Positions 4,274-45,808 of a stretch of 64,000 bases of DNA are shown here, in pieces (the first letter of the stretch is position 1; each line of letters begins with the position of its first letter). Below the pieces are notes generated by a model. It searched no databases, was not told the origin of the DNA, and saw nothing but the letters and a program-made list of their open reading frames with translations. Made by a program: the position numbers and the translations under genes. Source of the DNA: an uncultured Candidatus Saccharibacteria bacterium (lineage in GTDB: Bacteria > Patescibacteriota > Minisyncoccia > Phycocordibacterales > UBA12445); the NCBI GenBank assembly GCA_964649715.1, contig CAZYTH010000002.1, forward strand, positions 2,248-66,247, in the 5' to 3' direction.

Positions 4274-4339
4274 ATAGAAGGAAAGTAATCTTTAACCTTA
4301 TTTTTGCTTAATAAAACTTAGTGTTTAATTTATAATCAG

Positions 4340-4531
4340 ATGGAAAAGAAACAAAAAAGGAACAAAATCATATATTTAATTATCGGAATTTATCTCATAT
4401 TAGCCCCAACTGGTTTTATTGGTTTTCCTTCGGTTTTTAAAAATGCCCTATATGTCATTTCTGGTTCTATAATATTGTGGAAGAAATTTATAGAGCCTAA
4501 GGAAGACGAAGAAATTTCAGTCATAAGATAA
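4340..4531 (+). CDS. hypothetical small membrane protein
   Basis: 63-aa ORF with one or two TM helices. Confidence 0.25.
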   Translation: MEKKQKRNKIIYLIIGIYLILAPTGFIGFPSVFKNALYVISGSIILWKKFIEPKEDEEISVIR

Positions 4532-4547
4532 TTTGGGAAAATAAAAA

Positions 4548-5735
4548 ATGAATAAAAGCGGAGGACAAGCAAACTGGCGAAAGATTATGTTTTTGTTTGC
4601 TGTAATATTACTGTCTGCCTCTTTCTTTTATATAAAGTTTATTAAAACAGAAACAGTCGGATATCTCGCACCTCAAGAATTTAAAGAGGATTTATTGGCT
4701 CAAGCGGAAGATTTCAAGCCAGAAATACCCAAGAGGAAAGTTGTTCATGTAGAAACTCCGACCAGCGTTAAGGCGGTCTATATGTCTAGCTGGGTTGCGG
4801 GTACCCCGTCTTTTCGAAACCAGATTATAGAACTCATAGATAGCACAGAGCTAAATGCGGTTGTTATTGATGTAAAAGATTCAACAGGAGTGATTTCTTT
4901 CCCGATGGACGACCCTCTTGTGAAAAGCTACGAACCATTTGAAAACAGGATCAGAGATGTTGAAAATTTAATAGACACTCTACACGAAAAAAATATTTAT
5001 ATAATAGCAAGAGTAACCGTTTTTCAAGATCCGCTCCTTGCTAGTAAAAGAAATGACATTGCTCCTTTCAGAAAAAGCACAGGTGGGTTATGGAAAGACA
5101 GAAAAGGTTTGGCATGGGTGGAGACAGGTTCCACTGAGGTATGGGAGTACAATGTTGCTGTTGCAAAATATGCATACAAAATAGGTTTTGATGAAATAAA
5201 TTTTGATTATATAAGGTTTCCTTCTGATGGCGATATGAATGATATCGGTTATAGATTTTATGACCCCGCCACCACAACGAAAGCCGAAAAGTTGAGAGAG
5301 TTTTTTGAATATCTTCACGGTGAGATGAAGGCTATCGGTGCTCCAATTTCGGCCGATTTTTTTGGTATGACAATGACGAACAAAGACGACTTAAATATCG
5401 GCCAGGTACTTGAAAACGCTATCCCGTATTTTGATTTTATTGCTCCGATGGTTTATCCGTCACACTATCCTACGGGTTTTCATAATTACAAGAATCCTGC
5501 TTCTGTCCCTTATGAGATAATCAGAATATCTATGGATGAGGGAGTAAAGAGAGCTATCAGTGCAAGCTCTACTCCAAATAAACTTAGGCCATGGCTTCAG
5601 GATTTTAATTTGGGTGCGACATACACAGCAGAAATGGTGCGAGCACAGATACAGGCCACTTATGATGCGGGTTTGAATTCGTGGATGTTGTGGGACCCTT
5701 CAAATAAATACACAAGAGGGGCTTTGTTGGAGTAG
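4548..5735 (+). CDS. DUF4015-type putative glycoside hydrolase-like (TIM barrel) protein with N-terminal membrane anchor
   Basis: Signal/anchor then VKAVYMSSWVAGT...AVVIDVKDSTG, recalled as the GHL10/DUF4015 pattern. Confidence 0.45.
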   Translation: MNKSGGQANWRKIMFLFAVILLSASFFYIKFIKTETVGYLAPQEFKEDLLAQAEDFKPEIPKRKVVHVETPTSVKAVYMSSWVAGTPSFRNQIIELIDSTELNAVVIDVKDSTGVISFPMDDPLVKSYEPFENRIRDVENLIDTLHEKNIYIIARVTVFQDPLLASKRNDIAPFRKSTGGLWKDRKGLAWVETGSTEVWEYNVAVAKYAYKIGFDEINFDYIRFPSDGDMNDIGYRFYDPATTTKAEKLREFFEYLHGEMKAIGAPISADFFGMTMTNKDDLNIGQVLENAIPYFDFIAPMVYPSHYPTGFHNYKNPASVPYEIIRISMDEGVKRAISASSTPNKLRPWLQDFNLGATYTAEMVRAQIQATYDAGLNSWMLWDPSNKYTRGALLE

Positions 5736-5904
5736 TCTCATCTATTTTTTGAAGAAGCATGCTCAAGTGTGACGAGTCATTTCTTGGTGTATAATCAGTT
5801 GCAATTCTTTCTTTGACTCACCACCACTATAGTGGTAATATACTAAACTATGTTTAGTCTTTTTTGACTATATCCATTGTTGTTATTATAACTCCACTAA
5901 TTTT

Positions 5905-6849
5905 ATGCAAAAGATAATTTCAATAATCGTTCCGGTTTTTAATGAAGAAAAAAATATTCCTCTTTTAATCTCGGATATCTCAAAAGTTTTTTCTTCTTTG
6001 TCTTATGGATATGAGATTATTTTTGTAAACGACGGTTCAAAAGATAATTCACAACAGTCTATAGAAAGAGTTCTAAGAGAAAATGATCGTGTAAAAAGCA
6101 TAGAGTTTTCAAGAAACTTCGGCAAAGAGGCAGCTACTTCTGCGGGATTGAAATATTCAATTGGTGATGCTGTTATTATCATTGATGCTGACTTGCAACA
6201 TCCGACTTCTCTTATTCCCCAATTTATTGAGCGCTGGGAAAGTGGTTCTGATGTAGTAATCGGCTTGCGAACCAAAACAAAGGGACAATCTCCCATAGAT
6301 GCCTGTTGTTCTTTTCTATACTATAAAATAATCAATGCAATAAGTAGCACCCCCATTGTCCCTGGAGCTACAGATTTTAGACTAATAGATAGGAGGGTTG
6401 TGGATGAATTCAATAGGTTTACTGAACATGAGCGAATCTCTCGAGGGCTTATAGACTGGTTGGGCTTCAAGAGAGAATTTATTGAATTTAAAGCAGGAGA
6501 AAGAGCGAATGGCACAGCCTCTTACTCTTTTTCTAAGCGAGTAAAATTAGCCATGTCTTCTTTTATTATGCACAGCTTGTTTCCTTTAAAATTTGCCGGT
6601 TATCTTGGCATTTTCATTACTACTGCTTCTGGTATCGGTGGACTTGTCATTTTTTTAAATCGTTATGTATTTAATGAAGTTTTTAATTGGAATATTTCAG
6701 GAACAGCACAACTTGCAGTGCTTCTGGTTTTCTTCAATGGTATTATTCTATCTTGTCTCGGCCTTATCGCCCTTTATGTGGGCAATATTCACGATGAAGT
6801 ATTGGGAAGGCCTCTATATGTCATAAGGAGCTCTAAAAATATAAAATAA
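5905..6849 (+). CDS. GT2 polyprenyl-phosphate glycosyltransferase (DPM1/GtrB/ArnC-like) with C-terminal TM helices
   Basis: IISIIVPVFNEE, VNDGSKDNS and IIDADLQHP motifs plus two C-terminal TM segments. Confidence 0.75.
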   Translation: MQKIISIIVPVFNEEKNIPLLISDISKVFSSLSYGYEIIFVNDGSKDNSQQSIERVLRENDRVKSIEFSRNFGKEAATSAGLKYSIGDAVIIIDADLQHPTSLIPQFIERWESGSDVVIGLRTKTKGQSPIDACCSFLYYKIINAISSTPIVPGATDFRLIDRRVVDEFNRFTEHERISRGLIDWLGFKREFIEFKAGERANGTASYSFSKRVKLAMSSFIMHSLFPLKFAGYLGIFITTASGIGGLVIFLNRYVFNEVFNWNISGTAQLAVLLVFFNGIILSCLGLIALYVGNIHDEVLGRPLYVIRSSKNIK

Positions 6850-7944
6850 ATGAAAATCCTTTGGTTCACATGGAAAGATAGAAAAAATCCTTTAGCCGGA
6901 GGGGCGGAAGTGGTGAACGAGGAGCTGGCAAAAAGACTGGCGAATGATGGGCATAATGTCACCTTGCTTGTCGGTGGATTTGACGGATGCGAACCTGAGG
7001 AAAATATAGACGGCTACAAGGTGGTGCGTGTCGGGACCAGATGGACAGTGTATCTGCACGCATATAGATACTACAAGAAACATTTGAAAGGTTGGGCTGA
7101 TTTAGTAATAGATGAAGTAAATACTATTCCATTTTTCTGTAAATATTATGTAAAAGAAAAGAATATACTTTTTATTCATCAGCTGTGTCGTCAAATATGG
7201 TTTTACCAGATGTTTTTCCCTCTTAATATTTTTGGTTTTGTTTTGGAACCGTTTTATCTTTGGCTTTTATCCGATTTAAAGGTTATAACCATTTCAAATA
7301 GCACAAAGAAAGATTTGATGAGATTTGGTTTTAAGCAGGGGAATATAAACATTATAAGCGAAGGGATAGAGATTGAACCGATTAAGGATGTTTCTTTAAT
7401 AAGAAAGTTTGAAAAGCCGACATTGCTCGGGTTCGGAGCTTTTAGAGAGATGAAGCGCACCGATCATATTCTAAAAGCATTTGAAATTGCTAAAGAAAGC
7501 ATGCCTGATTTAAAACTTATTCTGGCTGGCGACTCGTCTGGCGATTATGGTAAAAAAGTGTTAAATTTGATAAAAAATTCAAAATATGCGGATTCTATAA
7601 AATATTTAGGAACGGTTACTATAGAAAAAAAGATAGAATTAATGCAGAGGTCGCACTTGATCGTAGTGACGTCTGTGAAGGAAGGTTGGGGTTTGATAGT
7701 TACCGAAGCTAATTCTCAAGGAACACCCGCAGTGGTCTATAATGTTGATGGTCTGTGCGATGCTGTAAAAGATAACGAAACTGGTCTCGTGTGCCAACAA
7801 AACACCCTTGAAAATTTAGCTGAAAACATGTTAAAGTTGCTAAACAATAAGGAAAAATATCAGAAGTTAAGAGTAAACGCATGGCAGTGGAGCAAAGAAA
7901 TAAATTTTGAAAATAGTTATCGGCAATTTATGGAGGCAATATAA
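6850..7944 (+). CDS. glycosyltransferase family 4 (GT-B fold)
   Basis: C-terminal EGWGLIVTEANSQGTPAVV...ETGLV (EX7E motif) of GT4 enzymes. Confidence 0.65.
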   Translation: MKILWFTWKDRKNPLAGGAEVVNEELAKRLANDGHNVTLLVGGFDGCEPEENIDGYKVVRVGTRWTVYLHAYRYYKKHLKGWADLVIDEVNTIPFFCKYYVKEKNILFIHQLCRQIWFYQMFFPLNIFGFVLEPFYLWLLSDLKVITISNSTKKDLMRFGFKQGNINIISEGIEIEPIKDVSLIRKFEKPTLLGFGAFREMKRTDHILKAFEIAKESMPDLKLILAGDSSGDYGKKVLNLIKNSKYADSIKYLGTVTIEKKIELMQRSHLIVVTSVKEGWGLIVTEANSQGTPAVVYNVDGLCDAVKDNETGLVCQQNTLENLAENMLKLLNNKEKYQKLRVNAWQWSKEINFENSYRQFMEAI

Positions 7945-7947
7945 AAA

Positions 7948-8757
7948 ATGAAAGAACCAAAAGTTTCGGTGATAATACCGACGAAAAATTCATCCAAAAC
8001 GCTTGAAGCCTGCTTGAGATCCGTCAAAGAACAGACATATAAAAATATTGAGATAGTTGTTGTTGATAATAATTCTACCGACAATACCAAAGAAATAGCA
8101 GGCAAATATGCGGATAAAGTTTTTAATAAAGGTCCGGAAAGAAGCGCACAGGTTAATTTTGGGGTTGAACAGGCGGATGGTTTTTTTGTTTATAAAGTTG
8201 ATTCGGACTTTATTTTGGATCAGAGAGTTGTTGAGGAGTGTATAAATAAGACAGAAGAAGGATATGATGCCATTGTCGTTCATAATTCTCCGGATATTAG
8301 GGTTTCGTGGATCGCTAGATTAAGAAAGTTTGAAGTTGATATGTATAAATACGACATTGTCCATTCATCGGCACGTTTTGTTGCAAAAGATGTTTATAAA
8401 AATATTGGCGGTTTTAATGAAAAAATTATAGCAGGAGAAGATTATGATTTTCAAAATAAGTTGAACCGTGGCGGATATAAGACGGGCTTTATCGATGCAG
8501 AGGCCCTTCATTTGGGCGAGCCGACCGAATTTTGGCCACATATGAAAAAATATTACGAATATGGAAAAGATTTTGTTAACTACGTAAATGAAAACAAATT
8601 TGAATCAGGGAAACAATTAGGCTTTTTAAGAGGTGTTTATATTAAAAATTGGAAAAAGTTTTTATTTCACCCCATTACTGGTCTAGGGTTTATTTTTTAT
8701 AATATTTCAAAATATGGATTCGGAGGGTTGGGGTATTTTATGTCAAAAATTAAATAA
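7948..8757 (+). CDS. glycosyltransferase family 2
   Basis: KVSVIIPTKNSSKTLEACLRSVKEQTYKNIEIVVVDNNSTD N-terminal GT-A signature. Confidence 0.7.
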   Translation: MKEPKVSVIIPTKNSSKTLEACLRSVKEQTYKNIEIVVVDNNSTDNTKEIAGKYADKVFNKGPERSAQVNFGVEQADGFFVYKVDSDFILDQRVVEECINKTEEGYDAIVVHNSPDIRVSWIARLRKFEVDMYKYDIVHSSARFVAKDVYKNIGGFNEKIIAGEDYDFQNKLNRGGYKTGFIDAEALHLGEPTEFWPHMKKYYEYGKDFVNYVNENKFESGKQLGFLRGVYIKNWKKFLFHPITGLGFIFYNISKYGFGGLGYFMSKIK

Positions 8758-8828
8758 ATGATTTTTCGATAAAACATTCTTTGGGAGAATTCTTTTTGTC
8801 GGCGTCGTAAAAAATTAATTGTAGATTT

Positions 8829-9851
8829 ATGAAAAAAGTTTCTATTTATGGTATCGGTAATTTTGGCTATGCGATATTGAAGCATTTAAGCAACAAAATT
8901 GATGGTGGGCAATTTTCTCTTTGTGTTTACGATAGAGACGAAGATTTAAGAGAGAGCATTAGAAATAAAAGGACACACACAACACACCATAAGGGGATAA
9001 GGATAAACGAAGGAGTGAAAGTGGCGGAATCCGTAAAAGATTTAATTTCTCAGACAGATATTTTAATCCTTGCGGTAGCATCTCCTGCCATAAAAAAGGT
9101 TTTAAAGGAGATTCGGAAGCACATAGACAAAAAGATAATAATTTTAAATACCGCCAAGGCCTTGGACTCTGTGAATGGAGAGAGATTCTCTGTTATCATC
9201 GAAAGAATATTGAGTGATGTTTCGCCCCAAATAAATGTGGCAGTTCTGTCGGGGGGTACAATAGCAAAAGATCTTTTTAACGAGAATCCTCTGGGAGTGG
9301 ATATTGCTTGCAAAGACATACAAATAGCGAAAGAGTTAAAAGATGTATTTATGTCCAACAATTTAAACGTTTACACAACAAAGGATATTGCTGGTGTTGA
9401 ATATGCGGGGGCTTTTAAAAATGTCGTGTCTATTTTGGCTGGTATAATGAATGGGGCGGGTTTTTCATATGGATCAGAAACCCATATAATATCTCGCTTA
9501 TCTGGAGAGATTAAAAATTTGTCTGTAACCAAGTTGGGGGCAAAAAATGAGACGTTTTCAATAGAAAGTCAATGTTGGGGGAACGATATGTTTATGAGTG
9601 CGACAGGAAATACAAGAAATAGAGAGTTTGGAGTTTTGATTGGTGGGGGATATAATACGAAAAATGCTCTTGAAAAAATGACGAAAGAAAACAAGACAGT
9701 TGAGGGAATAAACACCACAAAAGTTATAAAGAAGATTATAAAAAAGCATAATTTCAACGCACCTATACTTTCTGCCGTAAATGATATTATCCTTAAGAAC
9801 AAAGACCCAAAAAAGACGATATTGTCTCTAATGTCATCAAAAATTATTTAA
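8829..9851 (+). CDS. gpsA: NAD(P)H-dependent glycerol-3-phosphate dehydrogenase
   Basis: N-terminal Rossmann (VSIYGIGNFG). Central AFKNVVSILAGIMNG..., TRNREFG and VEG..TK blocks align with GpsA (ALKNVIAI.., SRNRRFG). Confidence 0.65.
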   Translation: MKKVSIYGIGNFGYAILKHLSNKIDGGQFSLCVYDRDEDLRESIRNKRTHTTHHKGIRINEGVKVAESVKDLISQTDILILAVASPAIKKVLKEIRKHIDKKIIILNTAKALDSVNGERFSVIIERILSDVSPQINVAVLSGGTIAKDLFNENPLGVDIACKDIQIAKELKDVFMSNNLNVYTTKDIAGVEYAGAFKNVVSILAGIMNGAGFSYGSETHIISRLSGEIKNLSVTKLGAKNETFSIESQCWGNDMFMSATGNTRNREFGVLIGGGYNTKNALEKMTKENKTVEGINTTKVIKKIIKKHNFNAPILSAVNDIILKNKDPKKTILSLMSSKII

Positions 9852-9859
9852 TTTTTAAA

Positions 9860-10258
9860 ATGGGAAAAACTATATTAACATACGGTACTTATGATTTGTT
9901 GCATGAAGGCCACATAAAGTTGTTAAAAAGAGCTAAGGCACTCGGTGATTTTTTGATAGTTGGTTTATCGACTGATGAGTTTAATAAAACGAAAGGTAAG
10001 AATAGTTTTATTTCCTATCAACAAAGGAAAATTGTGCTTGAGGCAATAAAATATGTTGATAAGGTAATACCTGAAAATGATTGGGTTCAAAAGATAAGAG
10101 ATATCAAAAAATACAAAGTGGATATTTTTGTGATGGGTGACGATTGGAAGGATAAATTTGATGATTTGAATAAATTTTGTAAAGTAAAATACCTTAAAAG
10201 AACTAAAAATGTTTCTACCACTGATTTAAAAAAAGATATTATTAATAAGAATAAATAA
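9860..10258 (+). CDS. tagD: glycerol-3-phosphate cytidylyltransferase
   Basis: ILTYGTYDLLHEGHIKLLKRAK (HxGH cytidylyltransferase motif), about 130 aa like TagD/TarD. Confidence 0.85.
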   Translation: MGKTILTYGTYDLLHEGHIKLLKRAKALGDFLIVGLSTDEFNKTKGKNSFISYQQRKIVLEAIKYVDKVIPENDWVQKIRDIKKYKVDIFVMGDDWKDKFDDLNKFCKVKYLKRTKNVSTTDLKKDIINKNK

Positions 10259-10262
10259 AATA

Positions 10263-10997
10263 ATGTTAGATAAAATCAAGACTTTTTTTCATGAATTATC
10301 GAGACCAATGCCGTTGGATAATAATTTTAACGATTACGATGAATATTGGAAGAATCGTGGTTTTCACGCACCCTCACAGCATAGGGCGGAAATAATATCA
10401 AAATATATTGAGCCCGGCTCAAGAATATTAGATATTGGTTGTGGCGATGGTACTATTATCGAATATTTAAGCAAGAACAATAAACCCAGGGAAATAGTCG
10501 GAATAGACATATCCAAAAGGGCCGTTGAATATGTAAAAGAAAAAGGATATGAGGCTTATGAAATGGATATTTTGTCGGAAGATTTTAATAAATTTTTAGA
10601 TGGTAAAAAGTTTGATTATATAATAATAACTGAAGTTTTAGAGCATATTATAGACCCAGAAAAGGTTATTGTTGCAGTAAAAGAAAAATTTAATAAATCA
10701 GTTTTTATCTCAATCCCGAATGCCGGTTTTTTTGTTCATAGATTAAGATTTCTATTTGGAAGATTTCCTGTTGTGATGGTTAACGAGCATGTAAAAGAAC
10801 ACATCCGCTTTTGGACGATGAAAGACTTTATTTATTGGGCAAAATATCATGGTTTTTCTGTCGAAAAAGTAATTGTTTCGGCTGGGTTAGGTTTTAGACC
10901 GCTCGTGTTTTTGGAAAATTTATTTCCTTCGTTATTTGGAAATCAGATAATTTATAAAATTATTTTAAAAGATGAAGATAAACAAGAAAGATATTGA
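10263..10997 (+). CDS. class I SAM-dependent methyltransferase
   Basis: ILDIGCGDGTII motif I; acidic residue after beta2. Confidence 0.6.
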   Translation: MLDKIKTFFHELSRPMPLDNNFNDYDEYWKNRGFHAPSQHRAEIISKYIEPGSRILDIGCGDGTIIEYLSKNNKPREIVGIDISKRAVEYVKEKGYEAYEMDILSEDFNKFLDGKKFDYIIITEVLEHIIDPEKVIVAVKEKFNKSVFISIPNAGFFVHRLRFLFGRFPVVMVNEHVKEHIRFWTMKDFIYWAKYHGFSVEKVIVSAGLGFRPLVFLENLFPSLFGNQIIYKIILKDEDKQERY

Positions 10998-11679
10998 CAG
11001 GGTTTATAATCAATCGATTATAAAGGAAGGTAATTCGGAAGGTTTTTTCAATGTTTTTATTTTTAGGAAGATTTCTATACATCTTTCTTGGTTATTGGCT
11101 TATTTAGATATTTCTCCTAATAAAATAACTATTTTTTCTTTTGTAATTGGTCTTATTGCTTCTTTTTTATTTTCTTTCGGTTTTTATTATTACACTTTAT
11201 TCGGTTTATTTTTTTATATTATCGCTAATATTTTGGATATGTCTGATGGAGAGGTAGCAAGATTGACGGGAAAGTTTTCGGAGTTTGGTCATTTTCTAGA
11301 TCCCTTTTTAGATAGAGTTCTTAATTTTATTTTTTTGGGTGGGGTTTCCTATGGTGTTTATGTTGAAAGTGGGAATAATTCAATTTTATTTTTGTATGTT
11401 TTTTATTTAATTTTCTCTTTTTTGAATTTATATTTAAACAGTGAATCTAAAAATCTTGGTGGTTTATCTGGAAAAGAATACCTTATAAAAACTACCCATT
11501 TTATTTCAAATGATAATATAAAAAAATATATAAGATGGGATGGTGGTTTTAGCTGTGTTATTTTAACTTTCTTTGTGCTTATAGACAAACTCTATTATTT
11601 CATTTTATTTTTATTATTTTTTTATATTTTTATTTTTTTAGCTTTATTTGTTGGGATTGTAAGAAAACTAAATGCTTAA
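10972..11679 (+). CDS. CDP-alcohol phosphatidyltransferase family membrane protein
   Basis: DMSDGEVARLTGKFSEFGHFLDPFLDRV matches the D-G-x2-A-R-x8-G-x3-D-x3-D motif; multi-TM. Confidence 0.6.
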   Translation: MKINKKDIDRVYNQSIIKEGNSEGFFNVFIFRKISIHLSWLLAYLDISPNKITIFSFVIGLIASFLFSFGFYYYTLFGLFFYIIANILDMSDGEVARLTGKFSEFGHFLDPFLDRVLNFIFLGGVSYGVYVESGNNSILFLYVFYLIFSFLNLYLNSESKNLGGLSGKEYLIKTTHFISNDNIKKYIRWDGGFSCVILTFFVLIDKLYYFILFLLFFYIFIFLALFVGIVRKLNA

Positions 11680-14600
11680 AAGGATTTTAGATGAATTAAT
11701 AAGATATAAATATATTTTATTTCTTTTAATTTTTACCATTTTAATCCATAATGTGTGGTTTTCTTTTGATAATATTTTAACGAGTACAGATTGGAGATAT
11801 TGGTTTAACGAATCAGCTAAAGAGGCATATTATTCTATTACGCCATGGATAGGTTTTTTTCATTTTGGTTATTTTAATGTACAAATGTATCTTTATTTTC
11901 ATATTTTTTTGTTTTCTCTTTTAGCTAATTTGGGTTTTGAAAGTGGTTTAACTTTAAAAATTGTTTATTTAATTCCGGTTTCAATAATGGGTTTTTTGTC
12001 TCCATATATCCTTGTCAAAAGATTGGTAAAAAATAATTTTATTGCTTTTGTTTCCGCATTATTTTACGGCACAACAACTTATTTTATTTGTAGACAGACA
12101 GCACATCTTTATATCGCTTTTATTTATTCTATTGCCCCATTGATATTTTATTTTTTTATTTCAGCTCTTTCTTCAAACAAAACAAAAGATTGGATATACT
12201 TCTTTTTGATTTCTTTTGTGGGTATTTGTTATGAGGCAAGGATAATGTTTATTGTTTTTTTTATTCTTCTATTCTATTTTATTTTTTTCCATGTTCTCGA
12301 GATAAAAAAATATTGTCGTGCTCTTTTTTTATTTTTTTGCTCCCTTTTGTTTTTTAACTCTTTTTGGTTGATTCCAACACTTCTCGGGGGCTCACAGGCA
12401 GGTATTGAAGAGATTACCGCTAGGGGTCTATTTGGTAATCATTTCTTTTCTTTGACTAACTCATTTACTATTCAAGAGTATGCGTGGACTGGTGGGGAAA
12501 TATTTGCTTTCGTAAAACAACCTGTCATTTGGTATTTTTGGTTTATACCATTATTCGCATTTTCAACCTTTTTATTTAAAAAAGCAAAGTATAAAAAAGA
12601 GTTGTTGTTTTTTGGGATATTGTCTTTGGTCGGCATATTTTTAACCAAACAATCTTCGGAGCCATTTACGGGGGTGTATCTGTGGTTATATAATAATTTT
12701 CCTGGTTTTTCTCTTTTTAGAGAAGCATCAAAACTATATTTAGTTACGTCTTTGGGATATCTTGGTTTAATATCTTATGGTTTAAGTATTTTCAAAGAGT
12801 CTAAAAATATTTACCTAAATAAGTATTTATTTTATTTTTTTTCTTTCTTGTTTATTGGAATAGCGTTTATTAATGTAAAACCTCTTTATACTGGAGAGAT
12901 GAAGAGAATGTTCGTTCCGAGAGAAATTCCGAAAGATTATTTAGTTTTTAAAGATTTTTTATTTAATCAAGAGAGTTTTTTTAGAACAGTCTGGGTTCCT
13001 GTGGTCTCAAGGTGGGGTTTCTTTTCTAATTCTTTTCCACGTGTATCTTTTGTTGACATGTTGAATAGTTCTTGGTCTGCGGTGTCAGATTATTCAAGCC
13101 CTAAAATGAAAAGGATAGCGAAGGAAGAAGCCATTTTGAATATATATAATAAAAATTTTGCTGATGAATTATTTGATATTTCTTTATTAAAATACATTGT
13201 CATTCCCATTAATGAGAAAGAAAATGATATTTATTTTTTTGATTCTTATGGTGGAAGAGAAAACCCTGGTGTAAGGCAATCGTATATTGAAAAACTGAAT
13301 GAAGTTTCTTGGCTCAAAAAGATAGATATCGGAACAAAGGATCTCGTGGTCTATGAAAACGAAGATTATAAACCACCAATATTTGCTTTTGATAATTTGT
13401 TTGGGTTAAATTATTTTTCCGACATTGATAAGAAATATGATCTTGCGTCTTCTAAACTTAAGAAAGAATTTTATTTTACTGTTGCAGATAAAAAAAATCA
13501 CGATGGCTCACCGTTATCTCCTCTTTTTGGTATTTTTGAAAATATTTCCGCAGATAATATTGGAAAAGATATTTCTTCAATCTTCCCTGGTCTTGGTCAG
13601 AGAGTTTTTAATTTATACAAGAAGAATACAAATGGTGTGGTCTTTTATTCTTTTGATGGTGATAAGGCGGTTTTTTACACAAAAGAGCGCGGAGTCTTGT
13701 CTCTAAATGGCATTAATGTCTCAGGGGCGGATGGTGAGAAAGATACCATTAGAACATTTTGGGCTATTCCTGGTGAGAAGTATTATATTTCCGAGGGTGG
13801 CACACTGTCTCCTTTGGTTAATGGAAAAGATTTTTATTTTGGAGATAACAAGAATGAAAAGACGATCAAAATATTTTCTGCAGGAGAGAATATATTGAAA
13901 AATGGTTCTTTTGAAGAAGGATTGTGGCAGGAAAAGGTTGGGGATTGTAATCGTTATGACAACAATTCAATAATGTCTATGAGTTTGGACAAAAAAAACA
14001 AAACCGATGGGGAAAATTCGCTAAGACTTGAAGCGACCACTCATATAGCATGTACTCTTACAAGGATACCTATCGTAGAATCAGGTAAGTATGTGTTCGG
14101 TTTTGATTATCAGAGTTCAAATTCTAAAATATCCGCATATCATCTTCGTTTCAATGACGCGGATAAAACATTGGTAAATGGCGTCCTGCCGATAGGCGAT
14201 AACAAATGGCATAGTTTTTTGAAGGAGATAGACATCCCTCCTGACGCAACTTCCGCCACTCTTCATATTTATGCTTATTCTTCAGACGGATTAATTAACA
14301 ATATTGTCAGATATGATAATTTTGAACTTCGTGAATTATATTTTGAGAAAAAATTAATTATTCCCGCCGAGAGGGGTGAATTTAAAAAGAGCAAAATAGA
14401 GATGGCGGAGGGGGGTAATGTTTTTAAATATGAAAGCAGTTTCTTTGACTATAAAAATTTATTTGCCAACGGTTCTTTTGAAGAAGGATTGTGGCAGGAA
14501 AAGGTTGGGGATTGCAATAATTACGACAAAGAACCGGTTATTGCTATGTCTTTGAGCGAAGCAACGAGCTCGGACAGAAGACGGTCGCTTCAGCTTGAAG

Positions 14601-15394
14601 CGGCGCGCCACATTGCTTGCACGGGCACGGCTACGAATATAGATGCCGGATCGACTTATTTTTTCATTTTTGATTATCAGAGCGATAATTCTAACACGGC
14701 TGGTTATCACATTGGTTTTAATGACAAAAAAAAGACAGTTATTGCGGAAAAGATAACTGTAAAAGATAAAAATTGGAATACTTTTTCTAATATCATAAAA
14801 GCCCCCGAAGGTGCGACCGCGTTTTCTCTTAACGTTTATGCTTACTCTAAGAATGAGAAAGAAAGAATGATAAACAGATATGATAATTTTAAGCTTATCA
14901 AAATTCCCGATTTGATTGGTTCTTATTACTTGGTTGGTGATCCCAGTATCAAGATTGAGAACCCTGCTTCTGTCGCCTTTGAACTTATAAATCCGACCAA
15001 GAAACTTGTACATATAAAGGGAGCATCGACACCTTTCTTTTTGGCTATGAGTGAAAGCTATCATCCGAAGTGGCAACTTCAAATGAATAATGACAAAGTG
15101 AACGGGTTTTTCAATTCATGGATGCCTTTCGTGGTTCCCGATAAAGTTTCCGATGACAGGCATTACAAATTGAACGATTTTTTGAATGCATGGTACGTGG
15201 ACACGGGGGTTATGTGTCATAATAATTCGGCTTGTGTAAAAAATGAAGATGGATCCTATGACATCGAGCTCGTTGTGGAATTTTTTCCCCAGAGATGGTT
15301 TTACTTAGGTCTTCTTATAAGCGGAATGACACTTACCGGATGTATTGGGTATCTGACGTATGAATGGAGAAAAAATAAAAAACAAATTGTATGA
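11672..15394 (+). CDS. large integral membrane protein: N-terminal multi-TM (GT-C-like) region plus two tandem CBM4/9-like beta-sandwich repeats and a C-terminal TM
   Basis: About 550-aa polytopic N-terminal region. Duplicated NGSFEEGLWQEKVGDCN...Y.YS domains at aa about 744 and 933; terminal hydrophobic helix. Confidence 0.5.
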   Translation: MLKRILDELIRYKYILFLLIFTILIHNVWFSFDNILTSTDWRYWFNESAKEAYYSITPWIGFFHFGYFNVQMYLYFHIFLFSLLANLGFESGLTLKIVYLIPVSIMGFLSPYILVKRLVKNNFIAFVSALFYGTTTYFICRQTAHLYIAFIYSIAPLIFYFFISALSSNKTKDWIYFFLISFVGICYEARIMFIVFFILLFYFIFFHVLEIKKYCRALFLFFCSLLFFNSFWLIPTLLGGSQAGIEEITARGLFGNHFFSLTNSFTIQEYAWTGGEIFAFVKQPVIWYFWFIPLFAFSTFLFKKAKYKKELLFFGILSLVGIFLTKQSSEPFTGVYLWLYNNFPGFSLFREASKLYLVTSLGYLGLISYGLSIFKESKNIYLNKYLFYFFSFLFIGIAFINVKPLYTGEMKRMFVPREIPKDYLVFKDFLFNQESFFRTVWVPVVSRWGFFSNSFPRVSFVDMLNSSWSAVSDYSSPKMKRIAKEEAILNIYNKNFADELFDISLLKYIVIPINEKENDIYFFDSYGGRENPGVRQSYIEKLNEVSWLKKIDIGTKDLVVYENEDYKPPIFAFDNLFGLNYFSDIDKKYDLASSKLKKEFYFTVADKKNHDGSPLSPLFGIFENISADNIGKDISSIFPGLGQRVFNLYKKNTNGVVFYSFDGDKAVFYTKERGVLSLNGINVSGADGEKDTIRTFWAIPGEKYYISEGGTLSPLVNGKDFYFGDNKNEKTIKIFSAGENILKNGSFEEGLWQEKVGDCNRYDNNSIMSMSLDKKNKTDGENSLRLEATTHIACTLTRIPIVESGKYVFGFDYQSSNSKISAYHLRFNDADKTLVNGVLPIGDNKWHSFLKEIDIPPDATSATLHIYAYSSDGLINNIVRYDNFELRELYFEKKLIIPAERGEFKKSKIEMAEGGNVFKYESSFFDYKNLFANGSFEEGLWQEKVGDCNNYDKEPVIAMSLSEATSSDRRRSLQLEAARHIACTGTATNIDAGSTYFFIFDYQSDNSNTAGYHIGFNDKKKTVIAEKITVKDKNWNTFSNIIKAPEGATAFSLNVYAYSKNEKERMINRYDNFKLIKIPDLIGSYYLVGDPSIKIENPASVAFELINPTKKLVHIKGASTPFFLAMSESYHPKWQLQMNNDKVNGFFNSWMPFVVPDKVSDDRHYKLNDFLNAWYVDTGVMCHNNSACVKNEDGSYDIELVVEFFPQRWFYLGLLISGMTLTGCIGYLTYEWRKNKKQIV
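13901..14514 (+). repeat. intragenic tandem duplication (two CBM-like domain copies sharing a 44-nt identical core)
   Basis: ggttcttttgaagaaggattgtggcaggaaaaggttggggattg at 13904-13947 and 14471-14514. Confidence 0.6.
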
Positions 15395-15837
15395 TATCCA
15401 ACAAAAAAAAATTACCACCTATAGGATGTTTTAAAAAGTTTATTGCTTTACTTATTTCTCGTACTCGTTGTATCGTGGAGCTGGTTAGGGGAGAACTCCA
15501 AAAAAAAAGAAGAAAGCTCGGCTATATTTTTTTGATCCCGATTATTATTTTGTTTTTAGGTATTACGATTTCCTTTTTTGTCGGCGCGAGGGGAGGAGTG
15601 TTGTGGGCAATGTTTTTTGCTTTTATCGTTTATGGCTGGGACAATAGAATTCCCGCCGCCCTTGCTTTGATATGTCTTTCTGTTTGTCCTCTTTTTATTG
15701 AGCTTGATATGAACGATCGTGCGGAAAATATCGCAGTATGGGCGTTCTTCTTTCTCACAATGACGGTAGCACTTCAGCTCATAGATATGTTTCGTCATCC
15801 AGATATTGAAATAACCGACCAAAATGAAAATTTATGA
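15391..15837 (+). CDS. hypothetical small membrane protein
   Basis: Start overlaps upstream stop (ATGA); three or four TM helices. Confidence 0.35.
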   Translation: MISNKKKLPPIGCFKKFIALLISRTRCIVELVRGELQKKRRKLGYIFLIPIIILFLGITISFFVGARGGVLWAMFFAFIVYGWDNRIPAALALICLSVCPLFIELDMNDRAENIAVWAFFFLTMTVALQLIDMFRHPDIEITDQNENL

Positions 15838-17491
15838 TAAAAATATCTTTCTTTTTGTTGTCGCCTCCATAGTTATCTTATGGCAGGCGCTTTTGCCTGG
15901 CTATATTTTAAGTTTGGATATGGTTTTTACCCCTGAAATGCACACAATCTCAGAAGCTGGTGGTTTTTTGAATACTTTACTCGTGGGCGGTTTACTCCGT
16001 TCGTTTTGTTTGGTTCTTCCCGCCTGGCTTATCCAAAAATTCATTCTTTTTTTTCTTTTCTTTAATATTGGTTACCTTGCTTACAAATTTTTGCCGGTCG
16101 GCGAAGACAAAAATACCCGTCTGTTTTCAGCACTAATCTATTTATCTAATCCTTTTGTTTATTCTCGTTTTTTAGCGGGTCACTGGATGCTTCTTTTTGC
16201 ATATGCTCTTCTTCCGATATTTATTTATTATCTTCTGGCACTGAAAGATAAATTTGATTTAAGATCAATGTTTAGGTTGTTTATAATTTTATTTGTGATT
16301 GGGCTATTTTCTCTTCATTTTCTTGTTATCTCATTCGCGATAACTTTCTTTTGGATATTTTATCTTTTGGCGAGGTTTTTGTATCAGAACGAAATTGCTG
16401 TGGCAAGGTCATTGTTTTTTAATTTTTGTATTGCTGTAATATTTTTTTTGATAGTTAGTGGTTACTGGATATTACCGGCTTTTTCAAGATCTGCGCCGAT
16501 AGAAGCGCGTTTTGGGCAAGAACACTGGAGTGCTTTTTCTGCGGGAAGCTATAATAACGTTGGCGTTCTTTTGAATATTGCTTCTTTGAACGGTTTTTGG
16601 GGAGAAAGGAATGTTTGGGCGGGATATTTCTTGTGGCCACAGGATAGTGCCGTTTTTTGGTTCGCTTTCTTGGCAGTTTTTGTTTTAGTGCTTTTGGGAA
16701 TATGTTTTGGATTAAGAAAAAAAGAGACGAGGCTCCTCACTGTTTTTTTTATGATTTTAAGTGCGTTTTCTTTTGTTTTCGCCACAGGGGTGTCGGATAC
16801 TGTCTTTAAAAATTTTAATTTATGGATGTATGAGCATATTTATTTTTGGTCGGGTTTTCGGGATAGTCAGAAATTTAGTGGTTTTCTCGCTTTAGGTTAC
16901 GCTTTTTTATCCAGCCTGGGATTTTCGCAAATATTTTCTTTTTTGGATGATAAAAAACCTGCTCTAAAAGAAAGGGTCCTGTCTTTTGTTTTCGTTATCC
17001 CAATTTTTTTCGGTCTTTTTGTGTGGGGAGGATTTCATGGGCAAATAAAATCTGTATGGTATCCTGCATCGTGGTTTGAGGTGCAAAATATTGTAAGAGG
17101 GGATATTACCGGTGGGCGTGTATTATTCTTGCCATGGCACGGATATTTGTCGTTTAAATTCAATAATAATTTGATCACCGCCAATCCATTTAGAACGTTT
17201 TTTGGAGAAAAAGTGGTTGCAGGACGAAGCGTTGAGATTGGGGATATTTATGATCAGGAAAACAATGAAGAGTATTCAGCGTTGGATAATCTGGTAAGAG
17301 AGAAGGTGTTTTTGTCTGCAAATGAGACGGTTGAATTATTGGCGAAGAAAAATATAAAATACATTGTTTATTTCCGTGACATTGAAAAGGTGGATAATTT
17401 GAAATATGAATTTTTAAATTCTGAAAAAATAGATTTGATATTAAACAAAGACGATCTCTCATTGTATGAAATAAAAGATTTACAGCGTTAG
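15824..17491 (+). CDS. polytopic membrane protein, likely paralog of the N-terminal domain of the 11672-15394 protein (GT-C-like)
   Basis: 555 aa with at least 10 predicted TM helices, similar layout to the upstream large protein. Start overlaps the previous gene. Confidence 0.4.
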   Translation: MKIYDKNIFLFVVASIVILWQALLPGYILSLDMVFTPEMHTISEAGGFLNTLLVGGLLRSFCLVLPAWLIQKFILFFLFFNIGYLAYKFLPVGEDKNTRLFSALIYLSNPFVYSRFLAGHWMLLFAYALLPIFIYYLLALKDKFDLRSMFRLFIILFVIGLFSLHFLVISFAITFFWIFYLLARFLYQNEIAVARSLFFNFCIAVIFFLIVSGYWILPAFSRSAPIEARFGQEHWSAFSAGSYNNVGVLLNIASLNGFWGERNVWAGYFLWPQDSAVFWFAFLAVFVLVLLGICFGLRKKETRLLTVFFMILSAFSFVFATGVSDTVFKNFNLWMYEHIYFWSGFRDSQKFSGFLALGYAFLSSLGFSQIFSFLDDKKPALKERVLSFVFVIPIFFGLFVWGGFHGQIKSVWYPASWFEVQNIVRGDITGGRVLFLPWHGYLSFKFNNNLITANPFRTFFGEKVVAGRSVEIGDIYDQENNEEYSALDNLVREKVFLSANETVELLAKKNIKYIVYFRDIEKVDNLKYEFLNSEKIDLILNKDDLSLYEIKDLQR

Positions 17492-17615
17492 GGGTATAAA
17501 AATCAACGATTTTAATTTGGAGTTGGGGATAAAATCACACTTTGCATTTGCATATTTTTTTTTTAGGTTTACAATAATACGAACAAGGATTAATGGATTG
17601 ATATCAAATAAATAA

Positions 17616-18197
17616 ATGAAAAAATTTCTTTTTTATTTTCCGGTTGTAGTCGCACTTTTTATTGTTGGCTCTTTGGGCGATGCTCGAGGAGATTTTTGGG
17701 GTGCTAAGTTGGCATTTGGTTATGGTGGAGGAGGTAGCGGAGGAGTTTGGTATGGAGGTAGTGATTCTATAGGGCAGACTGTAACATATCCTCAAATAAC
17801 TCCTGTGCCTCTGTCTATATTGCCAGCTAAACCGATAAGCGAGATGACACCAGTAGAGCTTCAGAGTGAAATAACGAGGCTTGTGAGTATTTTAGTTCAG
17901 TTGCAAACACAGTTGGGTTTGCCTGTCTCAATCCCTGGGGCGTACAATTTCTCAAGGAATTTGACTTTGGGTTCAACTGGTTCAGATGTGAGAGACCTTC
18001 AGAGGGCGCTCAATAGTGATCCTGATACTTTGGTTAATATTTCGGGTGCAGGTTCGCCTGGCAATGAGACTACATTCTTTGGTCCAGCAACAAGGAACGC
18101 TGTTTCTAAGTTTCAAGTTAAGCACAGAATATCTCCTTCTGTAGGATATTTCGGTTCTCTCACAAGGGCAAAGATGAATTCATTGTTTGCTCAATAA
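17616..18197 (+). CDS. secreted glycine-rich protein with C-terminal peptidoglycan-binding domain (PG_binding_1-like)
   Basis: Signal peptide and GYGGGGSGG tract. C-terminal G.TGSDVRDLQRALN...FGPATRNAVSKFQ..H.I pattern of PG-binding domains. Confidence 0.5.
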   Translation: MKKFLFYFPVVVALFIVGSLGDARGDFWGAKLAFGYGGGGSGGVWYGGSDSIGQTVTYPQITPVPLSILPAKPISEMTPVELQSEITRLVSILVQLQTQLGLPVSIPGAYNFSRNLTLGSTGSDVRDLQRALNSDPDTLVNISGAGSPGNETTFFGPATRNAVSKFQVKHRISPSVGYFGSLTRAKMNSLFAQ

Positions 18198-18212
18198 TAG
18201 ACATACATTTTA

Positions 18213-18246
18213 AAAACCAGCTCAAAAAAGGGAGCTGGTTTTTTTA
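18213..18246 (+). terminator. rho-independent terminator (ccagctc..gagctgg followed by a T run)
   Basis: Perfect 7-bp stem followed by tttttttaa. Confidence 0.5.
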
Positions 18247-18332
18247 ATTTAATTTGTGTTGTTATGGTTTTGCTAAAAGACCTTAGAAGTTCAAAAAATA
18301 AACCACCCAGAAACGGGTGGCAGTAAACTTTT

Positions 18333-18644
18333 TCAAATTATCAGATTTCTTCCTTTTTGGAGGAGGATCTGAAATTCTCTTTTTGTGAGCTCAATCATTC
18401 CTCCAGATTCGTCGATGATGTTTAGGGAGTCGTGCCCAGTTTGATATACCTTGACCACCCCGTCGTCTTTTTTGTTGAGGATGTTTTCAAACTGTTCTTT
18501 GGTGAATTCCACTTTTCCACCAGCATCATCAAAGATGACGTATGTCTCGTATTGAGTAGAGAACACGACAGGACATCTGTCAGAGCTGGGATTACGGAAC
18601 TTGAACTCCGATAGTATTTTTGCAAGAGCACTTTGTGTGAACAT
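18333..18644 (-). CDS. hypothetical protein with two internal about 40-aa repeats
   Basis: FDDAGGKVEFTKEQFENIL and IDESGGMIELTKREFQILL repeat units. Confidence 0.35.
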   Translation of the reverse strand: MFTQSALAKILSEFKFRNPSSDRCPVVFSTQYETYVIFDDAGGKVEFTKEQFENILNKKDDGVVKVYQTGHDSLNIIDESGGMIELTKREFQILLQKGRNLII

Positions 18645-18716
18645 TGGGAAGCTCCTTTCTTTTCAAGATACGAATTTATCTGAGGGTAAACATTTTTTTG
18701 GGCTTTGTCAAGTTTT

Positions 18717-18833
18717 TCGCGTTAGGATTCTTCCATTACGTGGACGGTATACCTTTTGAACATATTTTGTTCGTGCTTCGCACTTCAAAATATGCTCAAA
18801 AGGTCTTCGAACGTGGGACGAAGTTCGACAGGC
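18717..18833. repeat. structured dispersed repeat, copy A (family also at about 27511-27700 and 30205-30535)
   Basis: Shares aggattcttc..gacggta.accttttg.a.atatttt..aaaatatgctcaaaaggt..ttcgaa..acgaag with copies B and C. Contains an 18-bp inverted repeat around a gtgcttcgcac hairpin. Confidence 0.5.
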
Positions 18834-18913
18834 TATTATTATTAATGGTGGATGTAGTAAAAGTGAGGCCGTCTCGTTGAGAAAAATAAATAAGATATGA
18901 TACAATAATTTTC

Positions 18914-20202: not shown

Positions 20203-20339
20203 TATTTATTCTGATTTGGCAATGTTTTTCGGTGGGGTTTGTGTTGTCATTAAATACAGATGAACATTGTTTTTTTTTATTGAAAAAACAGCGGGCCCTA
20301 TTTTTAATTGAGCGGTTTTTGGAGTAAAATATTATAGTT

Positions 20340-32665: not shown

Positions 32666-32667
32666 AA

Positions 32668-38192: not shown

Positions 38193-38252
38193 GATTCGAA
38201 CCTACGACCAACCGCTTAACAGGCGGTCGCTCTACCACTGAGCTACCGCGGA
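38178..38252 (-). tRNA. tRNA-Asn (anticodon GUU), CCA encoded
   Basis: Reverse complement tccgcggtagctcagtggtagagcgaccgcctGTTaagcggttggtcgtaggttcgaatcctacccgcggagcca folds as a cloverleaf. 7-bp acceptor stem; ctgttaa anticodon loop. Confidence 0.85.
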
Positions 38253-45805: not shown

Positions 45806-45808
45806 AAA

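Follow-up and report, generated by a model that had tools for sequence, protein, structure and literature searches.

A predicted surface-glycan operon in a Patescibacteria genome combines CDP-glycerol synthesis, a CDP-alcohol phosphotransferase and a pair of AftD/MmpA-like membrane proteins

What does a compact run of glycosyltransferase, cytidine diphosphate (CDP)-glycerol and large membrane-protein genes produce in a bacterium of the candidate phyla radiation (CPR)? This question is raised by a 64,000-nucleotide stretch of DNA from an uncultured Candidatus Saccharibacteria bacterium (contig CAZYTH010000002.1, positions 2,248 to 66,247 of the forward strand), which is called the window here. 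Positions 5905-17491 of the window hold ten open reading frames (ORFs) according to the ORF list, all of them co-directional on the + strand. An earlier note, made from the sequence alone, had predicted that they encode a teichoic-acid-like or glycerophosphate-decorated surface glycoconjugate pathway. As argued below, that prediction is supported: this operon probably builds a surface or cell-wall glycan that is assembled extracytoplasmically, in a version to which glycerol-phosphate is added.

The genes lie in the order of a family 2 glycosyltransferase (GT2a), a GT4, a second GT2 (GT2b), GpsA, TagD, a methyltransferase, a CDP-alcohol phosphotransferase, a 1240-amino-acid (aa) membrane protein, a small membrane protein and a 555-aa membrane protein. 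The tight packing described before, with overlapping starts and stops, is borne out by intergenic distances of 0, 3, 71, 8, 4, -26, -8, -4 and -14 nucleotides (nt); thus, four of the nine junctions overlap. The earlier note spoke of eleven genes, but ten are present on this strand, and its own list names ten. The family to which it assigned each gene was reproduced in every case by Pfam, NCBIfam and PDB comparisons.

The two large membrane proteins had been likened to enzymes of the GT-C fold. They belong to big families found nearly entirely in Patescibacteria and annotated as "hypothetical". Direct scans of the two proteins yielded only CBM_4_9, a weak DUF6541 match and a sub-threshold match to MmpA, and searches of PDB sequences, either with single sequences or with profiles, were empty for both families. 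Across the families, PF11847 (GT-C_AftD) was weakly matched in 3 of 30 members of the 555-aa family and PMT_2 in 4 of 29 members of the large one. AlphaFold models, which were built with family alignments, were confident over the whole 555-aa protein (pLDDT 90.8, pTM 0.92) and over residues 1-570 of the 1240-aa protein. When these models were compared with known structures by Foldseek, AftD was the best match for both. For the 555-aa protein, the AftD structure 6w98 came first (E 5.7e-9, TMq 0.66) and the top 20 matches were all GT-C enzymes, with STT3/OST, PglB, AglB, AftA and DPY19 among the further matches. The N-terminal part of the 1240-aa protein matched AftD 6wby (E 7.8e-6) and had 22 GT-C matches at probability 1.0; STT3/OST, PglB, AftA, DPY19, ArnT and ALG12 were among its further matches. 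Transporters did not exceed a probability of 0.15 for the former protein and 0.12 for the latter, so the GT-C assignment stands.

At the sequence level, the 555-aa protein (15824-17491) matches the NCBIfam model of MmpA (NF053599) over residues 12-552 of 555 with 148.6 bits, against a cutoff of 210, and an E of 2.4e-43; it is therefore an MmpA homolog rather than an equivalog. This match does not make it a transporter, because it is sub-threshold and because the MmpA family is itself an AftD paralog of the GT-C type. A bridge to AftD is provided by a 948-aa CPR protein from one of the related loci (L001:4553-7396), which carries PF11847, matches the sequence of the AftD structure at 1.7e-11 and aligns with the pair of large proteins from the window at 1e-27 and 1e-11. 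The 555-aa protein had also been taken for a paralog of the larger one, and it is indeed related to its N-terminal domain, with 26% identity in BLASTP (E 5e-9) and an hhalign probability of 99.3% for the two proteins (E 1.1e-20, 427 columns).

Residues of a catalytic type were sought in both families, and an invariant Asp was found just after the first transmembrane (TM) helix; it is D32 in the 555-aa family (all 30 sequences) and D40 in the large family (all 29 sequences). These two residues are aligned to each other by hhalign, and their L-D-x-x-x-x-P context resembles the K-L-D-L-A-I-N-P of AftD. An F-R-x-x-x-K motif is likewise invariant in both families. Altogether, D40, R350 and K354 are invariant in the large family and D32, P37, R346, D347 and K350 in the other. 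In AftD, D41, E251, K361 and D474 are among five residues shown to be essential for function. Through the alignment with the L001 protein, the invariant Asp corresponds to AftD D41, and the Arg of the FRxxxK motif (R350/R346) to AftD K361.

The 1240-aa protein (11672-15394) is of the AftD type of architecture, as a polytopic GT-C domain (aa 1 to about 570) is followed by two modules that resemble carbohydrate-binding modules (CBMs) and by a C-terminal TM helix. The first CBM_4_9-like module (aa ~739-886; 13886-14329) scores 34.7 bits against PF02018 (cutoff 25.9), and the second (aa ~928-1075; 14453-14896) was recognized by BLASTP against the first, with 48% identity over 148 aa (E 1e-48). These modules point to a glycan as the substrate of this putative enzyme. 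The C-terminal TM anchor (aa ~1209-1230; 15296-15361), read from the sequence as WFYLGLLISGMTLTGCIGYLTY, is conserved in the family members P0280 and P0327. The co-encoded GtrB-type GT2 suggests that both large proteins would use a polyprenyl-phosphate sugar as donor.

Between the genes for the two GT-C proteins lies that of a small membrane protein of 148 aa (15391-15837), whose conserved core of three TM helices (aa 51-138) has 240 representative relatives. This family had no match to Pfam, GtrA or PDB chains. In particular, the protein was considered as a GtrA flippase and rejected, since none of 40 family members matches GtrA even at E <= 1. In other loci, the 3-TM module is fused to the C-terminus of the large GT-C (P0280) or to the N-terminus of 555-type proteins (P0262, P0044, P0059 and a gene of L006). 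Because it is found fused to either one, the small protein is probably a physical partner or subunit that links both GT-C proteins.

The other element in question is the 235-aa CDP-alcohol phosphotransferase (10972-11679), which has about six TM helices and matches PF01066 with 54.8 bits (cutoff 22). Its catalytic signature, D89xxD92G93xxA96R..G106xxxD110xxxD114, is complete at all eight residues; in an alignment of 13 sequences of its subfamily, seven of these residues are invariant and the Arg is replaced by Lys in two sequences. The subfamily also has motifs of its own, EGFFNVFIFRKISI and KYIKWDGGF, and it is small, with 13 close relatives in the protein collection and six loci in reference genomes. 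The possibility that this is an ordinary phospholipid synthase had been raised, and the comparisons speak against it. Against NCBIfam models, the enzyme scores about 70 bits for DIPPS and AIPS, with their cutoffs far from reached, and 49 bits for PIP synthase, compared with 20-24 bits for PgsA, ClsA and PssA (PgsA 24, cutoffs 109/304; PssA 20, cutoff 107). Likewise, its PDB matches are AF2299 at 2e-17, DIPPS at 4e-13 and PgsA at 0.07. AF2299 and DIPPS use soluble CDP-alcohol donors and do not process lipids; in AF2299, the glycerol moiety of CDP-glycerol sits in a donor pocket that is small and hydrophilic (PMC4634129). Taken by its relatives and its gene context, the window protein is most likely a CDP-glycerol glycerophosphotransferase that would act on a membrane-associated glycan intermediate.

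The context of this gene was examined in about 90 related loci, and a census of upstream genes was taken in the 44 metagenomic loci whose sequence extends 2.5 kb or more 5' of the large GT-C. In glycan loci of Patescibacteria, the large GT-C, the 3-TM module and the 555-type GT-C recur as a trio; Wzx-GT2a-GT4-GT2b often stand before it, and in some loci a PG_binding_1 gene comes after it. Gene order thus recurs in related CPR genomes. In the census, upstream homologs of GT2b were found in 33 of 44 loci, of GT4 in 32, of the methyltransferase in 28 and of GT2a in 14. The remaining upstream genes are variable and include methyltransferases, GT4s, DegT aminotransferases, sugar-nucleotide enzymes, Stealth proteins and a pyruvyl transferase. 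It was considered whether every variable cassette adds an anionic group (glycerol-phosphate, phosphonate, Stealth sugar-phosphate or pyruvate); this was rejected, as the 82 unclassified upstream genes are mostly methyltransferases, GT4s, aminotransferases and sugar-nucleotide enzymes.

In each of the ten CPR loci examined, the gene of the CDP-alcohol transferase is in close linkage with that of the large GT-C. TagD and then the transferase stand directly 5' of the large GT-C in L005, L006 and L007; in L037 both are present, separated from the large GT-C by a GT4 and a methyltransferase, and in L014 and L022 the transferase is upstream of the large GT-C and TagD was not detected in the available sequence. 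The arrangement that continues with the small module and the 555-type protein is seen again in L005, L006, L007 and L014, and in partial form in L022 and L037. In L017 and L025, the order is TagD (68-71% identity), methyltransferase (68%), a TagF-family gene with a Glyphos_transf domain (E 1.3e-72; L017:8775-9965, L025:8818-9987) and the large GT-C. Of all the comparisons, this one is the most telling: between orthologous neighbors, one and the same slot can hold a classical CDP-glycerol glycerophosphotransferase or, alternatively, a CDP-alcohol transferase. On their own account, the TagF-family genes of L017 and L025 show that some CPR loci use classical chemistry of the teichoic acid type.

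A second kind of exchange concerns the head group. In L004, a transferase with 53% identity lies beside a Fom1-like fusion of a cytidylyltransferase and a phosphoenolpyruvate (PEP) mutase, a Ppd-like thiamine-pyrophosphate enzyme and an iron-type alcohol dehydrogenase (Fe-ADH); there is precedent for such a cytidylyltransferase fusion in Fom1 (PMC6697681). Cytidylyltransferases that carry a C-terminal fusion domain of about 290 aa, itself without a Pfam match, are also found near divergent CDP-alcohol transferases in L055 (6532-7779), L070 (5888-7183) and L077 (5604-6872), the last with an Asp/Glu racemase nearby. These were considered as phosphonate cassettes like that of L004 and rejected, as only the cytidylyltransferase domain is recognizable and the C-terminal domain has no Pfam match. 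More distant relatives of the transferase occur in Pelagibacteraceae and Cellvibrionaceae, beside nucleotidyltransferases in polysaccharide loci.

Some further observations were made in these loci. Two proteobacterial metagenome-assembled genomes, of Pelagibacteraceae and Cellvibrionaceae, share a block around the CDP-alcohol transferase (L010:4420-12542 and L013:4222-12717) that comprises an MsbA-like ABC protein, an asparagine-synthase-like amidotransferase, a nucleotidyltransferase, the transferase, a heparinase II/III-like protein and a GT2, with a GtrB/ArnC-like GT2 a few kb downstream (L010:19100-20077, L013:16917-17945); it appears to be an uncharacterized module of polysaccharide decoration. 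Genes of toxin-antitoxin or defense type, namely MazE-like, Fic, pentapeptide-repeat and AAA_14/DUF4143 ATPase genes, are inserted in or beside glycan loci (L005:7523-7717, L006:5295-8751 and 13992-15131, L004:236-1405, L025:5296-6429). Downstream of the L006 glycan locus, positions 20081-20714 are the start of a gene for a giant surface protein of 6843 aa with Laminin_G_3, TIG and Kelch repeats.

The first six genes encode enzymes that are predicted to work at the cytoplasmic face. GT2a (5905-6849; 314 aa) consists of a GT-A domain (PF00535, 102 bits) and two C-terminal TM-like segments (residues 233-251 and 270-288). It had been called DPM1-like, and that it is a polyprenyl-phosphate glycosyltransferase is upheld; nevertheless, it is closer to GtrB and ArnC than to DPM1, as the solved structure of GtrB, a polyisoprenyl-phosphate glucosyltransferase (5EKP), aligns with residues 5-308 at 2.8e-61, compared with 1e-34 for ArnC and 9e-18 for the dolichyl-phosphate mannose synthase DPMS. 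Its best NCBIfam model is PgfS (232 bits, below the cutoff of 500), and AglJ is a weak match. Orthologs with 52-68% identity are present in L002, L003, L005 and L006. GT4 (6850-7944; 364 aa, GT-B fold; PF00534, 118.6 bits) and GT2b (7948-8757; 269 aa, GT-A fold; PF00535, 91.3 bits) are soluble, and the matches of both are generic for their families. Orthologs of GT4 with 62-67% identity are found in L003, L005, L006 and L007, and relatives of GT2b in L004-L006 (35-43%) and L037 (73%).

The precursor of the glycerol-phosphate group would come from the next two enzymes. GpsA (8829-9851; 340 aa), a predicted NAD(P)H-dependent glycerol-3-phosphate dehydrogenase, passes PF01210 (87 bits) and PF07479 (108 bits) and scores 214.7 bits on its best NCBIfam subfamily model, NF000942, below the cutoff of 257. 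No GpsA homolog was found in L001-L007, and it is thus regarded as an addition specific to this locus. TagD (9860-10258; 132 aa), the glycerol-3-phosphate cytidylyltransferase that makes CDP-glycerol, exceeds the equivalog cutoff of TIGR01518 (177.4 against 165.4 bits) and aligns end to end with the solved TagD/TarD structures 2B7L and 1COZ at about 1e-48 (2B7L 3.7e-48, residues 3-130), so that its identity is secure; orthologs with 65-71% identity occur in L005, L006, L007, L017, L025 and L037. The sixth gene (10263-10997; 244 aa) encodes a class I S-adenosylmethionine (SAM) methyltransferase that is MetW/UbiG-like (PF07021, 79.9 bits). The family given before was right, and the gene can now be placed within the glycerol-phosphate cassette, since orthologs with 68% identity stand immediately 3' of TagD in L017 and L025.

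From these parts, a pathway can be proposed in which the use of CDP-glycerol as donor, the class of acceptor, the order of the steps, the formation of a complex and the final attachment are all predictions. At the cytoplasmic face, GT2a would charge polyprenyl phosphate with a sugar, and GT4 and GT2b would extend a lipid-linked intermediate with further sugars. GpsA would supply sn-glycerol-3-phosphate and TagD would turn it into CDP-glycerol, from which the CDP-alcohol phosphotransferase may transfer glycerol-phosphate onto a hydroxyl of a membrane-associated, probably polyprenyl-linked glycan, with release of cytidine monophosphate (CMP). Enzymes of the TagB/TagF type would fill this role in the orthologous loci. 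The co-conserved methyltransferase may methylate the same intermediate, which would then be exported by a flippase encoded outside the window. Outside, the 1240-aa AftD-like GT-C would hold the glycan acceptor by means of its two CBM modules and, probably as part of a complex that also contains the 555-aa MmpA-like GT-C and the 3-TM module, would move lipid-linked sugars onto a growing polymer or a wall acceptor.

Of the two products that had been envisaged for this pathway, a glycan decorated with glycerol-phosphate is better supported than a teichoic-acid-like poly(glycerol phosphate) [poly(GroP)] chain. A single decoration is more likely than a chain, because CDP-alcohol transferases are not known to be polymerases, and no TagF, TagGH or TagO is present. 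In effect, the TagB/TagF Glyphos_transf, TagO/TagA, TagGH and LCP domains were absent among the ten cluster proteins and the scanned flanks, and Glyphos_transf was found only in L017 and L025.

Several points weigh against this proposal as a whole. The window has no Wzx (searched with a hidden Markov model of six Wzx proteins from related loci) and no flippase of GtrA or ABC type, and neither a priming phosphoglycosyltransferase nor TagO/TagA nor an LCP ligase was detected in domain scans of the cluster and flanking proteins. The 555-aa and 1240-aa proteins were not called GT-C by Pfam or NCBIfam, with the thresholds of PF11847 and MmpA unreached, and equivalents of E251 and D474 of AftD were not mappable or clearly conserved in the alignment bridged by L001. 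In the census, the glycerol-phosphate cassette is rare, with TagD in 6 and the CDP-alcohol transferase in 4 of 44 loci. No CDP-alcohol phosphotransferase is known to modify a glycan, and none that does was found in the searches made here; the characterized ones make lipids or soluble phosphodiesters. The characterization of the CPR protein families themselves is computational, and mycobacterial MmpA is without a demonstrated glycosyltransferase activity (PMC8698533).

Other explanations of the same genes have to be weighed, and two of them concern the product of the CDP-alcohol transferase. The enzyme might put glycerol-phosphate, in the manner of the Kennedy pathway, on diacylglycerol or on a glycolipid made by GT4, which would give phosphatidylglycerol or a glycerophospho-glycolipid; such a product could remodel scavenged lipids or anchor a lipoglycan that is extended outside by the GT-Cs with polyprenyl-phosphate sugars. 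Mycobacteria offer a parallel, as they proceed from phosphatidylinositol (PI) to PI mannosides (PIM) and then to lipomannan (LM) and lipoarabinomannan (LAM) with a CDP-alcohol enzyme, the GT4s PimA/B, the GT2 Ppm1 and GT-Cs of the Mpt, Emb and Aft types, and the locus has all of the enzyme classes of the LM/LAM route (CDP-OH_P_transf, GT4, GtrB/DPM1-type GT2 and AftD-like GT-C). Furthermore, PIP and AIP synthases are the nearest to the window enzyme among lipid-synthesizing enzymes, GpsA is classically an enzyme of phospholipid precursors, and the phosphonate context of L004 is compatible with a lipid product, since eukaryotic phosphonolipids are made from CMP-aminoethylphosphonate (CMP-AEP) by CDP-alcohol-type transferases. 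Nevertheless, a lipid product seems unlikely when the TagF-family enzyme in the same slot of orthologous loci is considered, as the characterized enzymes of this family are known to use polyprenyl-linked glycans or poly(GroP) as acceptors rather than diacylglycerol. The tight linkage to the large GT-C in the ten CPR loci also speaks against it, domain scans of the window revealed no further gene of lipid synthesis, and the enzyme has the short six-TM form, while lipid-acceptor enzymes of the CEPT1 type carry three to four additional TM helices (PMC4634129). The same slot exchange speaks against the proposal that GpsA, TagD and the transferase make a soluble phosphodiester, a compatible solute of the glycerophospho-inositol type as in Archaeoglobus, and are next to the glycan genes by accident. 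The nearest characterized relatives, DIPPS and AF2299, do act on soluble substrates; yet the transferase gene overlaps its neighbors by 26 and 8 nt, its linkage to the large GT-C persists across the CPR loci examined with differing head-group cassettes, and domain scans of the window found no inositol-phosphate synthase or phosphatase, all of which makes an accidental neighborhood extremely improbable.

The remaining alternatives concern what the large membrane proteins do. The 555-aa protein, and possibly the small module as well, could be a non-catalytic scaffold or a lipid-handling partner of the large GT-C. Its E of 2.4e-43 is to an MmpA model named "trehalose lipid delivery protein", Cashmore et al. 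proposed a role for MmpA as membrane anchor or in a complex (PMC8698533), and the fusion of the small module to either partner suggests a complex. This is rather hard to reconcile, and so considered quite unlikely, with the invariant Asp after TM1 (L-D-x-x-x-x-P) and with R346, D347 and K350, which align with essential residues of AftD, with a fold that matches active GT-C enzymes over its full length (TMq 0.66), and with a 2026 preprint that infers from Foldseek that the biochemical role of MmpA is that of a glycosyltransferase (10.64898/2026.07.31.741767). It might also be that the GT-Cs transfer a lipid-linked glycan bearing methyl groups and glycerol-phosphate to surface proteins (S-layer proteins, pilins or others), much as the archaeal Agl or the Streptococcus mutans Pgf systems do. 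The top NCBIfam match of GT2a is PgfS, with AglJ as a weak one, and OST, PglB and AglB are among the Foldseek matches. The set of parts in related loci (GtrB-like GT2, GTs, Wzx-type flippase, methyltransferase and GT-C) parallels AglJ/G/I/E, AglR, AglP and AglB. By contrast, the best match in structure and sequence is AftD, a glycan-to-glycan transferase, with OST-type matches weaker; the large GT-C carries two carbohydrate-binding modules; a peptidoglycan-binding protein is encoded 3' of the trio in several loci; and a TagF-type enzyme occurs in orthologous loci. Protein glycosylation is thus regarded as very unlikely, and a glycan assembled outside the cell remains the preferred product of this operon.

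How the proposed glycan pathway relates to known systems can be described part by part. For the membrane proteins, the closest system is that of AftD, a GT-C arabinofuranosyltransferase of Mycobacteriales (PDB 6W98) that combines, in one large protein, a membrane domain of GT-C type at the N-terminus, a soluble GT-C domain, CBMs and C-terminal TM helices. MmpA (Rv0226c/NCgl2761) is a shorter paralog of the N-terminal region of AftD, and the two are encoded in a conserved locus with the methyltransferase MtrP in Mycobacteriales (PMC8698533; preprint 10.64898/2026.07.31.741767). In Corynebacterium, MmpA has a role in the synthesis and transport of acetyl-trehalose monomycolate (PMC8698533). The window resembles this arrangement in the domain layout of its large protein, in having a shorter paralog that corresponds to the AftD N-terminal region and neighboring genes for the two proteins with a methyltransferase nearby, and in keeping both the Asp that follows TM1 and, at the position of AftD K361, a basic residue. 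It differs in that sequence identity is about 12% and the thresholds of PF11847 and MmpA are not reached, in having two CBM_4_9-type modules instead of three CBMs, and in having a separate 3-TM protein where AftD has its TM13-16 bundle, an equivalence that is putative. The sugar and the acceptor must also differ from those of AftD, because CPR bacteria are not known to have a mycolate or arabinogalactan pathway.

Multi-component transmembrane systems, which add sugars to envelope polymers extracytoplasmically with a GtrB/CsbB GT2, a GtrA/GtcA flippase and a GT-C such as YfhO or GtrX (PMC8035078, PMC11127046), are similar in associating a GtrB-type GT2 with GT-Cs and a small multi-TM protein. 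Unlike them, the window has a small protein with no detectable similarity to GtrA, two GT-C paralogs, one with CBMs, and a CDP-glycerol branch; in addition, the extra cytoplasmic GTs and the Wzx-type flippase of related loci suggest an oligosaccharide rather than a single sugar. With wall teichoic acid or teichoic-acid-like capsules, the locus shares a bona fide TagD, CDP-glycerol as the predicted donor and, in L017 and L025, a TagF-family enzyme in the same position, but in the window a CDP-alcohol phosphotransferase takes the place of that enzyme, TagO, TagA, TagGH and LCP are missing, and assembly by GT-Cs is predicted. As for the transferase itself, AF2299 and the IPCT/DIPP synthase of Archaeoglobus fulgidus (PDB 4O6M, 4MND) have the same catalytic signature, the same short form of about six TM helices and the same pairing with a cytidylyltransferase that makes the donor; in the window, however, the cytidylyltransferase is a separate TagD gene instead of a fused N-terminal domain, the context is glycan assembly and not compatible-solute synthesis, and the subfamily has its own motifs. 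Finally, phosphonate tailoring with Fom1/PntC cytidylyltransferases (PMC6697681) also delivers a small, polar, CMP-activated head group to a surface glycan or lipid, although the window makes CDP-glycerol and not a CMP-phosphonate. For pntC neighborhoods, LicD-like phosphotransferases or glycosyltransferases are named, and the word "phosphatidyltransferase" is absent from the main text of that paper (PMC6697681).

The limits of the operon are suggested by sequence patterns. A promoter-like site, TTGACT-17-TAATAT with a TG extension (5813-5841, +), matches the consensus in the 169-nt gap 5' of the first gene, and a terminator-like hairpin with a 12-bp stem followed by a T-run (18212-18243, +) is the strongest such pattern within 4300-19000; the counts of promoter-like and terminator-like patterns in the region are not above those of shuffled sequences. 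Between the 555-aa gene and this hairpin lies a co-directional gene for a 193-aa PG_binding_1 protein (17616-18197, +; PF01471, 33.7 bits), which may be the eleventh member of the same transcript. Homologs of it are found 3' of the 555-type gene in L001 and L002 and nearby in L027. With respect to composition, the GC fraction falls to 0.23-0.29 over 9700-12300, from TagD through the methyltransferase and CDP-alcohol transferase genes into the 5' end of the gene for the large GT-C, with 0.34-0.40 on either side and a normal composition for GpsA. This low-GC TagD-methyltransferase-transferase segment fits a cassette, with the codon usage of membrane proteins contributing to the dip.

The flanking genes are of housekeeping or unknown type and not related to the cluster (Mur ligase, TP_methylase, DUF4015, NYN and C39-like peptidase). 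Among them, a DUF4015 glycoside-hydrolase-like protein (4548-5735, E 8e-102) is encoded immediately 5' of the operon, in the position where related loci carry the Wzx flippase; a homolog of it is absent from L001-L007. Elsewhere in the window, AT skew rises to +0.17 to +0.26 over 34-38 kb, and a gene for a large serine recombinase (36558-38192, +) ends within a tRNA-Asn gene (38178-38252, -), so the segment 34000-38300 may be a mobile element integrated at a tRNA gene. N6_N4 DNA methylases are encoded by two neighboring genes (31883-32665 and 32668-33528, -), which together with a gene for a 412-aa protein without a Pfam match (30658-31896, -) look like a module of the restriction-modification type (30658-33528). 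A 331-aa protein with a metalloprotease domain of the anthrax-lethal-factor type (ATLF; E 3.5e-15) is encoded at 23682-24677, and an HlyD-like membrane-fusion protein, an ABC ATPase and a MacB/FtsX permease at 44270-47784 form an exporter of the tripartite type.

Every part of the operon belongs to a known superfamily and its logic is a known one, with a lipid-linked precursor, decoration in the cytoplasm and assembly outside by GT-Cs; it is not a new kind of system. In the literature searched, no paper dealt with these families or with the chemistry of CDP-glycerol in Patescibacteria, and neither AftD/MmpA-type pairs outside Mycobacteriales, nor the 3-TM partner, nor a CDP-alcohol phosphotransferase that stands in for TagF in a glycan locus have been described there. 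Cashmore et al. reported finding no homologs of MmpA beyond the Corynebacterineae (PMC8698533). A broader generalization, in which our confidence falls a little short of even, would be that this branch of CDP-alcohol phosphotransferases in CPR bacteria consists of glycan-directed transferases of cytidylyl-activated head groups, glycerol-phosphate here and phosphonate or others in sister loci. They would be interchangeable with TagF-type enzymes at this step, and the glycan would then be assembled outside by an AftD/MmpA-type GT-C pair with a 3-TM subunit, a machinery thought to be specific to Mycobacteriales but widespread in Patescibacteria.

For these organisms, the operon represents a candidate pathway for an anionic surface glycan, which could play roles like those of teichoic acids, such as cation binding, recognition by phages or hosts and anchoring of surface proteins. 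For the CDP-alcohol phosphotransferases, it predicts a new activity, the glycerophosphorylation of a glycan, for which the orthologous loci that use TagF offer a natural control. Lastly, aftD and mmpA are essential in Mycobacterium tuberculosis, and their distant relatives in a simpler, mycolate-free system could help to separate a glycosyltransferase role from a scaffold role.

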